A stretch of 5,166 bases of DNA from a plasmid, in NCBI RefSeq assembly GCF_055900595.2, contig NZ_JBVWEU010000008.1, one strand, 5' to 3'. The position numbers and the translations under genes are program-made. This document shows positions 488 through 5,166 of this stretch, in pieces. Below the pieces are notes generated by a model that did not search any database, was not told where the DNA came from, and worked only from the letters and a program-made list of their open reading frames with translations. Numbering within the stretch: position 1 is the first letter of the stretch; every line of letters starts with the position of its first letter.

Positions 488-1414
488 TCAGAATCCCATA
501 GAAAATCCACGTGACGGTGATTTAACCCGTTCAGGTGCAGTTCGGTTCTGTCTGCTCACTCTGTCTCTCATGTCAAAGCCATGCTCCCGCGCAACATCAT
601 GTTGCAGCCTTCTGACCAGTTCATGTTGCTTAACCGGAGTGTCCAGCCATTCCCTGATGTCATGCCCGACCGTTCGCGCCTGTTCAAGATGGCGGGAATA
701 GTCCGGTTCAGACCGTTTTTGCATGATGTCATGACGCTGGGCATCATCAAGCCGTCCGGCAGCTTCAAAACCCAGATGCACTTCGGGACGTCGTTCAATG
801 CCCTGTTCTTTCAGCGTCCGGCAGTCAATGAAGCCCCTTTCAAAGCCATGCTTTCTCATATGTTCGTTGTGCTTCACCTCCCAGCGTTTTCGCAATTCCC
901 GCAACTGCTCTTTTTGCTGAGTGAGAGTCAGGCTTCCGGAATCCTTTTTCGCACCTCCCCGCTCGGGATACCTGGCGTTATAGCGCCGGAAATACTGTTC
1001 CGGTGTACGTTCAATGCCATCATTCACACGCTGACTCATCATGATATGCGCATGAGGCTGTTCGCCGCCGTCAATGCTCGCTTTCGGATTGTGAATGGCA
1101 AAACTCCAGGCGTGCCGTTCGCCAGCTTCCTGACGTACAAAATCCTGCACCAGTTCAAGGCGCTGTTCCGGTGTCAGTTCACGGGGTAATGCAATTTCAA
1201 GTTCCCTATAGGTCGAACCGTTCGCACGTTCAAACTGGTCAGCCGCCTGCCAGAAATGGGAAGGATTATCCCTGGCCCATTCCGGCATGTTTCCGTGTGC
1301 GGAATATTCCAAATCCTGACGGTCGCGGTATTTCTCTTTGCGCTCGATGTAATCGGCGTGGTTTGCAGCCTGCCCCTTGCCACCAAATTTAACGCTGAGG
1401 TGATAGGTTGCCAC
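488..1414 (-). CDS. mobA: MOBQ-family relaxase MobA (relaxase domain only, 308 aa)
   Basis: 308-aa ORF with GTG start and GAGGG about 8 nt upstream. N-terminus MATYHLSVKF...ADYIERKEKY (catalytic Tyr region), ERANG, EIALPREL and HAHIMMSQRVNDGIER (histidine-triad motif) match my recollection of RSF1010 MobA-type relaxases. No primase-like C-terminal extension. Confidence 0.85.
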   Translation of the reverse strand: MATYHLSVKFGGKGQAANHADYIERKEKYRDRQDLEYSAHGNMPEWARDNPSHFWQAADQFERANGSTYRELEIALPRELTPEQRLELVQDFVRQEAGERHAWSFAIHNPKASIDGGEQPHAHIMMSQRVNDGIERTPEQYFRRYNARYPERGGAKKDSGSLTLTQQKEQLRELRKRWEVKHNEHMRKHGFERGFIDCRTLKEQGIERRPEVHLGFEAAGRLDDAQRHDIMQKRSEPDYSRHLEQARTVGHDIREWLDTPVKQHELVRRLQHDVAREHGFDMRDRVSRQNRTAPERVKSPSRGFSMGF

Positions 1415-1590: not shown

Positions 1591-1989
1591 ATGCGCATCA
1601 GCAACATCGAATGGCTGAAGAAACGGATCGGATTCATCAGGAAGCTCGGAGAACAGACCGCACGACAGAGACAGATTATTGACCTGATCGACAACGAAGC
1701 CGGACTCACAGAACAGGAACGCAAACTTCTCCACGTACTGGCAACAGCGGAAAAAAACGACTTACAGGCACAGGAGAGCGAACGAAAACAGGCGGTCCAA
1801 AAACGAATCGAGGGAAAAAAACAACGACGGGAACGCAATCACCGGCTCTTTCTCGCGGCTGGGCTACTGATCGAAGCAGGACTGGTAGACACAAAAACAG
1901 GCGAGCTATGCTATAAAAAAGACAGGATATTACAGGCACTTAAGGAACTTAAGTACGATCTGGAGACATCCCCAAACCCAGACGCGTAA
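1591..1989 (+). CDS. mobC: MobC-like relaxosome accessory protein (132 aa)
   Basis: ATG at 1591 with GGGAG SD (1576-1580) 10 nt upstream; TAA at 1987-1989. Divergent from mobA across oriT, as in RSF1010. Segment KKQRRERNHRLFLAAGLLIEAGL resembles the conserved basic/hydrophobic core of RSF1010 MobC as recalled. The track ORF 1471..1989 (GTG start, no SD) is probably an artefactual N-terminal extension. Confidence 0.65.
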   Translation: MRISNIEWLKKRIGFIRKLGEQTARQRQIIDLIDNEAGLTEQERKLLHVLATAEKNDLQAQESERKQAVQKRIEGKKQRRERNHRLFLAAGLLIEAGLVDTKTGELCYKKDRILQALKELKYDLETSPNPDA

Positions 1990-2139: not shown

Positions 2140-2197
2140 CTGCTCAAAAAGACGCCAGAAAGGCGCTGTTATCTGATATAGGCTTATTTGGTCTACT
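2140..2197 (-). other. ori: ColE2-type origin of replication (Rep-binding / primer RNA site)
   Basis: Directly 3' of rep and overlapping its stop codon. The rep-sense strand reads TAGACCAAATAAGCCTATATCAGATAACAGCGCCTTTCTGGCGTCTTTTTGAGCAGC, which matches my recollection of the ColE2-P9 minimal origin (AGACCAGATAAGCC..TATCAGATAACAGCGCC..TTTGGCG). Confidence 0.6.
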
Positions 2198-3107
2198 CTA
2201 CGAGACCTCGTTTTTTCAGTTGGTAATACCAGGCGCGACTGATCCCTAATGCCTCCCACGGTTTCAGCGTGCGTGCAGATGTAGCTACTGTGCTGCGCTT
2301 AGACTTAGAACCGCCCTTGCGACCGCGTGCAGCCTGAATTTCTGGCGTGTGCGTATCAGCCACATACTGTGCGAAAGTTTCCGGCGTGAAGTTCCTGTGC
2401 GTGTATTTCGCAATGCTCTTGCCAATAGCCCGACATTCAGCCAGTGAAAGCGGAACGGGAAGCGATGCATTGTACATTTCGACACGCTGGATCACCGCTT
2501 CAAGCCACTGTGAGAACGCTGGCCAGCCCTGACGAATCGCCCTGTAAGCCCATTTGCGCGTCATTTCGAACAGGTGGCAGTTTCGCCCCATCCCGTAATG
2601 TTTATCGATGCTACGACGCTCTGAGGCGCTCAAATCGAGATAATCAGCCAGTTCATCGAGGGTATAGGCTTCCTCGCGCCACTCCATCACCAGCCATTCC
2701 AGGTGGAACGGATTTTTGCAAATCAGGCCGCTGTAGTTCACATCCGCACAAAGTTTCTCACACAGCGAACGTTCAACCGCTGCGGCATATTTCAGCGCCT
2801 TAACCGAGGCATCAGGCGCGGTTCTCACGGCGATGTTGAGTGCGTAGAGCAGGTGAGCGTGTCCGTTCACAGGATTTTTAACGGTGATGTTCGGCGCGGG
2901 AGCGTTCCGGTCGCTCCAGTCAATCGCAGCCCCCTCGCGGTCAACGTCAAAAACCAGCCAGAACTGTGCATGAGGCTGGTTCTGCTGGATATACCGTGCA
3001 AGAAGCGCGCGCCCTTTGCCGGAGATACGAAGGCCGAAAGCGAGATCATCCGTGTGATAGGGACGGTGGGGTAAATTTTCTTCGAAGTATTGAAGCGCGG
3101 CGCTCAT
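2193..3107 (-). CDS. rep: ColE2-type replication initiator Rep (primase-like, 304 aa)
   Basis: 304-aa ORF, ATG at 3107..3105 with AAGGA SD 10 nt upstream. Sequence (MSAALQYFEENLPHRPY..., FDVDREGAAIDWSDRNAPAPNITVKNPVNGHAHLLYAL, GKSIAKYTHR) matches my memory of the ColE2/ColE3 Rep family. Origin-like sequence lies immediately downstream, as in ColE2. Confidence 0.85.
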   Translation of the reverse strand: MSAALQYFEENLPHRPYHTDDLAFGLRISGKGRALLARYIQQNQPHAQFWLVFDVDREGAAIDWSDRNAPAPNITVKNPVNGHAHLLYALNIAVRTAPDASVKALKYAAAVERSLCEKLCADVNYSGLICKNPFHLEWLVMEWREEAYTLDELADYLDLSASERRSIDKHYGMGRNCHLFEMTRKWAYRAIRQGWPAFSQWLEAVIQRVEMYNASLPVPLSLAECRAIGKSIAKYTHRNFTPETFAQYVADTHTPEIQAARGRKGGSKSKRSTVATSARTLKPWEALGISRAWYYQLKKRGLVE

Positions 3108-3124: not shown

Positions 3125-3203
3125 AGGTTATCGACCGACATCGCCCCTGTATTTTCGTGAAAGTCTTGGCGGATAGACACGAATTTCAGGGGCGTTTGTT
3201 TTT
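3125..3203 (+). ncRNA. Putative antisense RNA (RNAI-like) complementary to the rep mRNA leader
   Basis: Bipartite hairpin: outer stem CGCCCCTG (3142-3149) / CAGGGGCG (3187-3194), inner stem TTCGTG (3154-3159) / CACGAA (3178-3183), followed by TTTGTTTTT (3195-3203) on the + strand only. Candidate + promoter TTGAAG (3090-3095), 16-nt spacer, TGT-TACGAT (3109-3117) overlaps the rep start. The 5' end is a guess. Confidence 0.4.
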
Positions 3204-3262
3204 CAGTCGCTTACACTACCCCCAACGACAAAACCTGTCGAGCCTTCCCGCAAATCCGATCC

Positions 3263-3290
3263 ATTTACCATAACTCCCGTTGTACGTACC
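3263..3290 (-). other. cer-like XerC/XerD recombination core (multimer resolution site)
   Basis: Minus strand reads GGTACGTACAA-CGGGAG-TTATGGTAAAT. XerD arm is identical to the ColE1 cer XerD site (TTATGGTAAAT); XerC arm is 10/11 to cer GGTGCGTACAA. Central region is 6 bp. Confidence 0.65.
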
Positions 3291-3391
3291 ATGTAAAACG
3301 CCCTCAATCGCTTTCTGGCGCAAAAAACGCAAAAAGACAAGAAAACACCAGGCCAAACCAGAAAAACGCGTCAGAAACGTTTTCAGAGCGT

Positions 3392-3405
3392 TGCATAACT
3401 ATGCA
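3392..3405. promoter_or_regulatory. ARG-box-like palindrome (possible ArgR accessory site of the cer-like locus)
   Basis: TGCATA-AC-TATGCA palindrome, about 120 bp from the Xer crossover region on the XerC side, where cer carries its ArgR site. Pattern TGnAT-N4-ATnCA versus ARG-box TGAAT-N4-ATTCA. Confidence 0.3.
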
Positions 3406-3532
3406 CGAAAGCGATGTGCGATCGGTTTCGTGCGTTCTGAACACCGAACGGCTCAAAACGACAAGTTTTCTCCCCTGGTGCGTGGCGCTCTGACGGGGTT
3501 TCCTGTTTCCAAACTTCACATCTCGCCAGGAC

Positions 3533-3556
3533 AAAAAAAAACCGACCTGGGGTCGG
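3533..3556 (-). terminator. Rho-independent terminator (minus strand)
   Basis: Minus strand: CCGACC-CCA-GGTCGG followed by 9 T (seen on + as A9 then CCGACCTGGGGTCGG). Confidence 0.55.
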
Positions 3557-3691
3557 TGGCAAGAATCAGAGTCTATGGGAAATATTTTAGTTATCGGATG
3601 CTCAATATTCACAAACGCAAAAAATGCCTCAGTGATGCCCTAAAACAACCTTTCCAGAAGGAGTCCGCGCTTTACGATGCACGGAAGAGAT

Positions 3692-3713
3692 AAAAAACCC
3701 CACAAAAGTGGGG
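3692..3713 (-). terminator. Rho-independent terminator (minus strand) at the backbone/AT-rich boundary
   Basis: Minus strand: CCCCAC-TTTT-GTGGGG followed by TTTTTT. Confidence 0.5.
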
Positions 3714-3940
3714 AACCAAGAGAAACAACAATTACAGGTTGTTGGTTGTGTTCGAACAACGATGAAGTAGCTACGCTAAATAATAATTACCGTACAGGCC
3801 CTACATATTCAACACTAAATTTAAGATCCTGACGAAGGATTTATAAATGCACGAAAACACATAGACAGACAAATTCACTAAATTCATACACAAAAACAAG
3901 TGTAGTTTTCTAAGTAAATTAGATTCGACAACCAATTAGT

Positions 3941-3949
3941 TTATCCACA
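3941..3949 (+). promoter_or_regulatory. DnaA box consensus (TTATCCACA)
   Basis: Exact 9-mer TTATCCACA inside the A/C-rich tract. Only one copy seen, so function is unproven. Confidence 0.3.
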
Positions 3950-4097
3950 TCGCATTCCACTCTTGCTACACCAATCACATTTCTTGATATGTAATAGCAG
4001 AAAAAATAAAACCAGACACCAATAGACCAAAAAACAAACATTCAACAAGAAACATTTTGAACAATATCACAAAACTGTCACAACCATCATCAGACTT

Positions 4098-4126
4098 TTG
4101 AAAAAAACTGGTTGCTGTTTTATAAA
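4098..4126 (+). promoter_or_regulatory. Candidate sigma70 promoter (TTGAAA, 17-nt spacer, TATAAA)
   Basis: -35 TTGAAA at 4098-4103, 17-nt spacer, -10 TATAAA at 4121-4126. About 105 nt upstream of the + strand terminator at 4212-4236. Confidence 0.35.
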
Positions 4127-4132
4127 AGCGAC

Positions 4133-4237
4133 TGTAACAACCTCCACTCTATAGTTCCATTAGTTTAAAGTGTCACACAAACTGAGCATCCATTTGTTTT
4201 CCTTACTTTTGCCCCTGTATTCCAAGGGGTTTTTTTA
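4133..4237 (+). ncRNA. Candidate small RNA, module 1 (promoter to terminator, about 105 nt, no ORF)
   Basis: Predicted start about 7 nt after the -10 at 4121-4126. Contains ACACAAAC, then TTTTCCTTAC (4197-4206), then terminator hairpin. No ATG in the interval. Confidence 0.3.
4212..4236 (+). terminator. Rho-independent terminator (plus strand), module 1
   Basis: CCCCT (4212-4216) / AGGGG (4225-4229) stem with 8-nt loop, followed by TTTTTTT (4230-4236). Preceded by TCCTTAC at 4200-4206. Confidence 0.5.
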
Positions 4238-4467
4238 TAACTTAAAGATTAGCACACCACACAAAAACAATAAAAAAAAACGACAAGTTATACAATAAAA
4301 CCAGTACCATCCATACAGCTAATTACATATAAATACTATTAAACCATCTGGACATTAAAAATAAACTCTTATAACATAAAATTAATGCGGTTCCGGTACC
4401 ATATGTCAGGGATAATGTGCAAATGGAGGTATCGGAACTGCATTTCAGTTCATTATTAATTAATGAC

Positions 4468-4494
4468 AAAAAAAAACCTCTGCGAGCGCAGAGG
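4468..4494 (-). terminator. Rho-independent terminator (minus strand), module 3
   Basis: Minus strand: CCTCTGC-GCTC-GCAGAGG followed by 9 T (+ strand A-run 4468-4476). Preceded on the minus strand by TCCTTAC (+ coordinates 4503..4497). Confidence 0.65.
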
Positions 4495-4526
4495 GGGTAA
4501 GGAATGTTCCCGGTCATAATATGTCG
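4468..4526 (-). ncRNA. Candidate small RNA, module 3 (about 60 nt)
   Basis: Runs from the candidate minus-strand promoter (4533-4561) to the terminator at 4468-4494. Contains ATTCCTTACCCCC immediately 5' of the hairpin. Confidence 0.3.
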
Positions 4527-4532
4527 ATAGTG

Positions 4533-4561
4533 TTTATATACATACAGAACAAGAACAACAA
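4533..4561 (-). promoter_or_regulatory. Candidate sigma70 promoter on minus strand (TTGTTG, 17-nt spacer, TATAAA)
   Basis: Minus strand -35 TTGTTG (+ 4561..4556), 17-nt spacer, -10 TATAAA (+ 4538..4533). Directs transcription toward the 4468-4494 terminator. Confidence 0.35.
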
Positions 4562-4713
4562 CCAGCCAACTAATAAATATTTTATTTTTTAGAGCTGAAA
4601 CCTTAAAGCTCACTTCCATTCCATACATTGTTATAAACCTTATGTTGAAAACTGAAAGTAAGTACGGCAGACTTATTAAGTTGCGTGCAGTCTTTTCACG
4701 TTATACAAACAAG

Positions 4714-4770
4714 AACACCTGCGAAGTTATTTCTCCTTACATATCCCCCTATGCCAACGGGGGATTTTTT
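4714..4770 (+). ncRNA. Candidate small RNA, module 2 / possible leader of the 69-aa ORF
   Basis: Weak promoter TTGCGT (4681-4686), 15-nt spacer, TATACA (4702-4707). Transcript would contain TTCTCCTTAC (4731-4740), then ATAT, then the 4743-4770 hairpin and T-run. Start is uncertain. Confidence 0.25.
4743..4770 (+). terminator. Rho-independent terminator (plus strand), module 2
   Basis: ATCCCCC (4743-4749) / GGGGGAT (4759-4765) stem with 9-nt loop, followed by T-run to 4770. Preceded by TCCTTAC at 4734-4740. Confidence 0.6.
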
Positions 4771-4842
4771 CTGGTTCACTAACGCATAAATAATAGTGAC
4801 ACCCTATCATTCACAAACCGTGATAATATAAGGATTATCATC

Positions 4843-5052
4843 ATGGCAAAATTAGGTGAAAACACCCCACATATTATCGATGCTACTGTAGATTTTATGG
4901 CATCAAGCCAGGCATTTCGTGAGTATCTGAAAAAACTTCCCCCTGATAACACAATACCGCCAGCTCTTACTGATGAGCACGTACCGTTATATATACGAAG
5001 GCTGGAATACTATCGTCTGCTTTATCGACCAAAGCAGACAGAATCATATTGA
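4843..5052 (+). CDS. Hypothetical small protein (69 aa), not recognised
   Basis: ATG at 4843 with AAGGA SD (4830-4834) 8 nt upstream; TGA at 5050-5052. Balanced codon usage, hydrophilic, no transmembrane segment. I do not recognise the family ([18 protein letters not shown]...). Competes with a minus-strand frame that is open from the window end to a TAA near 4966. Confidence 0.45.
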
Positions 5053-5166
5053 AAAAAACGGTGAACGGTTCGCGAAATCCTTTCGCGGGTCGTGAGGCGT
5101 TGGACAAGCGAAGCGCGTCAGTTTTTCCGGCTCTTCCCCGTGACAGGTTTCTCCACCAGTTTATCT

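Follow-up and report, generated by a model that had tools for sequence, protein, structure and literature searches.

Tandem intrinsic terminator motifs upstream of the cer-rep region of a small ColE2-type plasmid

Upstream of the cer-like site and the rep gene of a small, cryptic and very common E. coli plasmid lie two genuine, canonical Rho-independent terminator motifs, T1 and T2, which stand in tandem on the minus strand and are aimed at cer and rep. Positions are given throughout in the coordinates of the window, the whole stretch of DNA that was analysed (5,166 nt). By somewhat more than an even chance, we lean towards a reading in which both motifs would be functional, T1 as the terminator at the end of the plasmid's cargo and T2 as the terminator of a small cargo RNA unit, and in which cer and the control of rep would be shielded from transcription. 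Tandem terminators in this setting are ordinary plasmid architecture, a matter of housekeeping.

Plasmid layout and the terminator motifs

The window is a complete small plasmid, mobilizable, of about 5.16 kb and of the ColE2 type (Col156, MOBQ4). It is matched over at least 80% of its length by 255 PLSDB records, the best of them at 99.7-99.9% identity (e.g. pCE10B, NC_017648), and the sequence of the terminator region is found in near-identical form in 297 of 5,426 complete E. coli genomes, plasmid-borne every time. Its Rep carries the pair of Pfam domains (Replicase and PriCT_1) by which ColE2-type replicons are recognised; together with the PlasmidFinder type of the relatives (Col156), this pair assigns the window to the ColE2-like branch of the MOBQ4 plasmids, in which a cer-like site is present and an antisense RNA, RNAI, controls rep by acting on the rep leader (PMC6856555). 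The layout can be summarised as ori-rep-leader-cer-T1-T2-cargo-mob, and a minus-strand transcript leaving the cargo would meet in turn T2, T1, the accessory arm of cer, the cer core, the promoter and leader of rep, and rep itself. Public records annotate nothing at T1 or T2 except an implausible ORF running through cer. A 69-aa plus-strand ORF at 4843-5052 (hypothetical in RefSeq) is without a Pfam match. The features of the backbone and the terminators are as follows.

488-1414, minus strand: mobA (ORF with Pfam MobA_MobL)
1591-1989, plus strand: mobC-like ORF, 132 aa, without a Pfam match
2193-3107, minus strand: rep, ColE2-type initiator-primase (Pfam Replicase PF03090 and PriCT_1 PF08708)
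3140-3206: rep leader stem-loop, a long hairpin whose plus-strand continuation is TTTGTTTTT
3263-3290, minus strand: cer-like core, GGTACGTACAA-CGGGAG-TTATGGTAAAT (XerC half-site, 6-bp central region, XerD half-site), aligning with ColE1 cer
3291-3475, minus strand: cer accessory sequences, a widely conserved block
3533-3557, minus strand: T1, intrinsic terminator (stem 3541-3557, 7 bp, loop CCA; U8 tail 3533-3540)
3692-3713, minus strand: T2, intrinsic terminator (stem 3698-3703/3708-3713, 6 bp, loop UUUU; U6 tail 3692-3697)
4468-4494, minus strand: third terminator, further upstream (stem 4477-4494, U9 tail 4468-4476), conserved in IncF homologues

The cer-like site shows the defining features of a cer-type Xer multimer-resolution site (PMC5357621, PMC2655662), namely two half-sites around a central region of 6-8 bp and about 180 bp of accessory sequence. 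The alignment with the ColE1 cer region extends to ~3475, and within it TTGCATAACTATGCA at 3391-3405 falls on the ARG-box region of ColE1 cer; over 1,000 plasmids have kept the accessory block (query positions 1-176). The promoter and leader of rep start directly past the XerD half-site of the core. The leader gives a sub-threshold match to the Rfam family PK-repBA (26.2 bits against a gathering score of 45; E 0.011), and its stem-loop at 3140-3206 is probably the target and the terminator of a ColE2-type antisense RNAI.

A sequence-only reading of this DNA had proposed two tandem minus-strand terminators upstream of a cer-like site and rep. The consensus scan, folding and shuffles all confirm the pair, and the positions of the cer core and of rep bear out its context; the coordinates proposed for it were correct to within one base, with the T1 stem extending to 3557 rather than 3556 and the interval between the two motifs measuring 134 bp rather than 135. 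Read on the minus strand, T1 is ACCGACC-CCA-GGTCGGT followed by TTTTTTTTG and T2 is CCCCAC-TTTT-GTGGGG followed by TTTTTTATC, each stem containing five GC pairs. Both motifs thus have the hallmarks of Rho-independent termination: a short loop on a GC-rich stem whose length falls within about 5-12 bp, a U-tract directly 3' of the stem, and a strength above that expected from composition. In the consensus scan they are the second and third best terminator-like sites on the plasmid, and by folding alone, compared with dinucleotide shuffles, T1 reaches -10.5 kcal/mol (z -3.0) and T2 -11.4 kcal/mol (z -4.1). A strict class was also defined, which required 6 or more Watson-Crick pairs (5 or more of them GC), a loop of 3-5 and 6 or more T among the 8 bases that follow. 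Three sites in the window belong to it, their stems ending at 3540, 3697 and 4476, and every one is on the minus strand; the mean in 1000 dinucleotide shuffles was 0.01, and not one shuffle had two such sites on one strand within 200 nt. Inspection of the plus strand found no T-run after either hairpin, and the restriction of the T-run to the minus strand indicates that T1 and T2 are unidirectional. A search of Rfam at E values up to 1 returned no match at T1, at T2 or in the cargo.

It is scarcely credible that the hairpins act at the level of DNA, as signals for single-strand priming or recombination, or that they are chance palindromes. Short palindromes can serve other roles, and nothing specific to these two speaks for such a role, whereas a terminator is recognised by just this combination, a GC stem with a T-run directly after it on a single strand; none of the 1000 shuffles gave two matches to the strict class, and stems of only 6-7 bp are also unfavourable to the idea.

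T1 and the junction of cargo and backbone

T1 is found outside the accessory arm of cer, at a distance of 66-82 bp (66-83 bp, measured to the end of cer, when the window and the plasmid pMG828-4 are counted together). In relatives with near-identical rep and cer, homology to the window ends at ~3476-3505, a break which on these alignments is the boundary between backbone and cargo and the point at which cargo has been inserted. The cargoes that lie behind this break differ among the plasmids compared (the window, L005, L010 and L011), being a colicin operon, a FAD-dependent oxidoreductase with ArsR, or an AT-rich module. One further plasmid, L006, has kept cer and cargo with another type of rep (rep_cluster_2150), and its homology to the window begins at 3145, in the rep leader.

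T1 is conserved in L006 and L016, and in pMG828-4 its stem is unchanged while two bases of the loop differ (CCA to CUU); the cargo gene of pMG828-4, the FAD-dependent oxidoreductase, is transcribed toward T1. The relatives of the colicin E2 group (L010 and L011) carry cea-cei-cel on the rep strand and have one strong terminator, 68-103 bp away from where cer ends, with a hairpin whose sequence is unrelated to that of T1 at the equivalent position. Terminators T1 and T2 have been described for the colicin E2 operon itself (PMC4353708), and the distal one (T2 of that operon) resembles T1 of the window in lying on the rep strand, directly upstream of a cer-like site and at the end of the cargo, at a comparable distance from cer (68-103 bp against 66-82 bp). 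The two differ in build, the colicin terminator having a 13-pair stem and a T-rich stretch on the other strand too, in contrast to the 7-bp, unidirectional T1, and in the window T1 is not preceded by genes for colicin, immunity or lysis.

Under one rule applied throughout, a terminator before cer is present in the family of the window, in pMG828-4 and in the colicin plasmids, and no canonical one is present in three cargo-less Col156 relatives in which mobA abuts cer (L012-L014), in a plasmid with another AT-rich cargo (L015) or in ColE1. From these exceptions it follows that shielding of cer is not obligatory. Across the plasmids aligned, a terminator at the junction of cargo and cer is recurrent in cargo-bearing members and is not universal; it may have been brought along by each cargo or may have been retained by selection. 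Since the place of T1 is taken in the colicin relatives by a distal operon terminator of unrelated hairpin sequence, T1 is best read as an end-of-cargo terminator that would prevent transcription from entering cer and the promoter of rep. Its position is that of the end of the cargo, and the promoter candidates of its own are weak only.

The same resemblance could be taken to mean that T1 and T2 are the relic of a colicin operon, its T1-lysis gene-T2 arrangement (PMC4353708) having persisted after loss of the colicin genes. Order, strand, approximate spacing and the cer-adjacent position all match the colicin relatives. Against this, tblastn and blastn searches of the window found no trace of cel or cei beyond chance words, the hairpin sequences are unrelated, and T2 is homologous instead to a non-coding module of IncF plasmids, and we judge such an origin very improbable. 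The flanking lysis gene, following colicin and immunity genes, by which the colicin T1 and T2 are identified was not found here, and with no similarity to cel or cei in the window this assignment is largely refuted.

The sequence between the two terminators could be read as a gene in its own right. Its features are as follows.

3558-3691, minus strand: 134-bp interval, the junction of a T1-proximal block and the start of the AT-rich module
3584-3614, minus strand: candidate promoter within the interval (-10 TAAAAT at 3589-3584; -35 GTGAAT at 17 bp or TTGTGA at 19 bp)

The T1-proximal block (3558-3618) is 84% identical to pMG828-4, and the AT-rich module that is common to IncF plasmids begins at ~3645. 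The sequence-only reading had suggested that the interval could encode a very short RNA, with weak promoter support. The TAAAAT element is indeed present and its support is indeed weak: the -35 matches the consensus at 3 of 6 positions with the 17-bp spacer or at 4 of 6 with the 19-bp spacer (8-9 of 12 in total), and although this is the best candidate in 3558-3691 it falls below the threshold of the scan and is not conserved in pMG828-4, where the -10 reads TAAAAA, without the final T, and the spacing is changed. If this promoter were used, T1 would end an RNA of about 43 nt. The promoter-like site itself speaks for such a product, as do the 17 nt directly 5' of the T1 hairpin, which are identical in pMG828-4, and the 100% identity of the entire interval to its counterparts in L006 and L016, set between diverged flanks. 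The region of complete identity covers 3545-3745, and in the same comparison cer is 82-94% identical and 3795-4045 is 65-80% identical; a role in termination only does not explain such perfect identity, which could reflect either constraint on the interval between T1 and T2 or a recombination tract. The second of these would remove the identity patch as an argument for a gene, the -35 is poor or mis-spaced, and the product would scarcely exceed the terminator hairpin. We therefore give little credence to an RNA gene in the interval and retain the reading of T1 as the terminator at the end of the cargo.

T2 and a candidate small RNA

The AT-rich segment has diverged homologues, ~70% identical, in large IncF plasmids, where they lie amid IS fragments near sta1 or fimbrial genes and have no cer or rep nearby. 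The stretch in common with these plasmids starts at ~3645-3671 and hence takes in T2. The IncF copies have an undamaged T2 stem that closes loops of 5-6 nt, and the 24 nt directly 5' of it are identical; T2, these 24 nt and a promoter-like site further upstream have an overall identity of ~75-78%. The stem is reduced to 4-5 bp in pMG828-4 and pCE10B (4 bp in pMG828-4). On these comparisons T2 belongs with the AT-rich cargo module, not with the backbone. The elements proposed for the unit that it would end are as follows.

3783-3812, minus strand: candidate promoter of the T2 unit (TTGAAT 3812-3807, 18-bp spacer, AATTAT 3788-3783; 8 of 12 consensus matches)
3692-3776, minus strand: candidate non-coding RNA of ~85 nt ending at T2, its start placed from the position of the promoter

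The promoter-like site is conserved ~85-95 nt upstream of T2. For an IncF homologue (L003), the scan reports TTGAAA-17-TAAATT ~70 nt upstream of the T2 homologue, and this aligns with the site at 3812-3783 in the window; pMG828-4 has TATTGAAT...TAAATT at the aligned position, and in L006 and L016 the -35 is weaker still (TTGAGG). Given a conserved promoter-like site upstream of T2, an RNA of ~85 nt running from ~3776 to 3692 is predicted, and T2 probably ends this candidate RNA. The retention of T2 in IncF plasmids without an adjacent cer or rep, together with the conserved site upstream, is the reason for preferring to see T2 as ending a small transcription unit of its own, the insulation of cer and rep then being a by-product.

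Several features of the unit are those of a small RNA. A conserved ORF was sought in 3640-4860 across seven homologues, and none persists in the IncF copies; the unit has been kept across contexts in four lineages (small Col156-type plasmids, L006/L016, pMG828-4-type plasmids and IncF plasmids), and the combination of retention with the lack of a conserved ORF is that by which a small RNA is recognised. The RNAalifold consensus of six sequences consists of two small hairpins and the terminator, with one compensatory GC-to-AU change and several G-U pairs which would be A-C mismatches on the other strand and fit a minus-strand RNA only. This consensus structure is lost on adding the more divergent pMG828-4 lineage. 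A duplex search of the candidate RNA against the translation-start regions of the plasmid and the other cargo units, by duplexfold, which is crude on long inputs, found nothing beyond shuffles. A real small RNA at 3776-3692 is, on this comparative evidence, plausible but unproven.

Small promoter-to-terminator genes without an ORF are familiar from plasmids, with RNAI, the regulator of ColE2 rep, and Rcd, encoded within the cer of ColE1, as examples (PMC6856555, PMC4393325). The candidate T2 unit resembles these in its organisation and differs from them in that it is not antisense to rep or cer, has no Rfam match, lies in cargo that is common to IncF plasmids, and has no complementary target detected on the plasmid.

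An exact-pattern scan for the T2 block in one genome per species returned low-coverage contaminant mini-contigs only and added no diversity. The copies concerned (L018-L021) are exact and sit on tiny contigs, three of them at ~1x coverage, in assemblies of Streptococcus parasanguinis, Moraxella, Brevibacterium and Mesorhizobium, and are almost certainly contamination by this E. coli plasmid. A 1.1-kb 'plasmid' (L025) was left out of the comparisons; it differs mostly by small indels, several of them in homopolymer runs, and looks like an assembly artefact.

The different histories of the two motifs bear on whether they could be a pure pair of insulators, both belonging to the backbone, both selected only to block cargo transcription into cer and rep, and neither ending an RNA product of its own. 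The hairpins stand in tandem on the strand of rep and are unidirectional, a terminator recurs at the same position in the colicin relatives, and both hairpins are present in pMG828-4 despite its different cargo, all of which would be expected of such a pair. However, T2 is kept in IncF plasmids away from cer and rep, along with its upstream sequence and promoter-like site, the homology break at 3476-3505 puts even T1 on the cargo side, and the cargo-less relatives are without such terminators. We consider a pair of this kind rather unlikely and prefer to see T1 as the end of the cargo and T2 as the end of a unit within it.

Proposed shielding of cer and rep and the possible nature of the cargo

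With T1 and T2 as functional Rho-independent terminators of different origin on the rep and mob strand, the following course of events can be proposed. Minus-strand transcription would arise in the cargo, for which candidate promoters are found at 4081..4054, 4862..4834 and 3812..3783, and the mob operon, unterminated, may add to it; no convincing terminator is found at the end of that operon, the inverted repeat CGCGAAAGGATTTCGCG at 5053-5118 (minus strand) scoring z -0.9. T2 would stop the small cargo unit (~3776 to 3692), and T1, with its uninterrupted U8, would catch read-through from T2, the third terminator (4494-4468) standing further upstream. By virtue of this serial placement little transcription would then cross cer into the rep promoter and leader, and the control region of the replicon would be shielded. 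The predicted benefit is the protection of a replicon whose copy number is set by the balance of rep mRNA and RNAI (PMC6856555), and the PepA/ArgR/Xer complex on cer may be spared as well. We infer termination itself, the promoter and start of the T2 unit, the insulation of cer and rep and its benefit to them from the arrangement and conservation of the motifs.

That the pair would insulate replication and resolution functions from transcription leaving the AT-rich segment had also been part of the sequence-only reading. This is supported insofar as a terminator 66-103 bp outside the cer arm recurs across differing cargo, and has to be narrowed insofar as T2 is not backbone and the cargo-less relatives, L015 and ColE1 are without one. 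A repeat related to that at 5053-5118 (minus strand) directly adjoins cer in the cargo-less plasmids L012-L014. Tandem terminators engineered ahead of the replication control region of a plasmid (e.g. those of rrnB in expression vectors) are a comparable arrangement, meant to keep read-through from destabilising it; read-through can cause severe plasmid instability, and inclusion of a terminator has been recommended (PMC2254391). The engineered elements follow a strongly expressed gene, whereas the arrangement in the window is natural and transcription upstream of it is predicted only. Our literature searches on transcription across cer returned no paper testing it or showing harm from it, those on this plasmid, including by name, no expression or termination data, and those on small RNAs of ETEC plasmids nothing directly relevant.

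The terminators are a small annotation for a plasmid family in which databases have left this position blank, and one that is useful for vectors built on Col156/ColE2 replicons and for models of copy-number control. The benefit of cryptic MOBQ4/Col156 plasmids to the host is not known (PMC6856555), and the conserved non-coding cargo bounded by T1 and T2 is a concrete place in which to seek it.

Within the AT-rich segment (3720-4840, 1.1 kb), islands of 75-95% identity coincide with pairs of promoter-like and terminator sites, against ~70% for the IncF homologues. This pattern suggests that the segment is a cluster of small non-coding transcription units. A stronger form of the idea, that T2 ends a real, expressed small RNA of ~85-95 nt and that the whole 1.1-kb ORF-free cargo is a small-RNA gene cluster of at least 3-4 promoter-terminator units, we entertain tentatively, as possible and on balance doubtful. 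These units are common to the IncF plasmids at ~70% identity, lying there close to loci for heat-stable enterotoxin and fimbriae. If true, the selectable payload of the plasmid would be regulatory RNA and not protein.

One further candidate small RNA, 'unit B', occupies 4098-4237 on the plus strand, with TTGAAA at 4098-4103, a 17-bp spacer and TATAAA at 4121-4126, and with ~100 nt to a terminator at 4211-4230 followed by a T-run. Its core, GTTTAAAGTG...ACTGAG...CATTTGTT, is kept in the IncF copies and in pMG828-4, and no covariation was seen in it. L003 has also conserved another promoter-like site of the plus strand, TGGACA-17-TAACAT (4349-4377), and the transcript predicted from it heads toward the minus-strand terminator at 4494-4477. 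Two convergent units may therefore overlap within 4349-4500.
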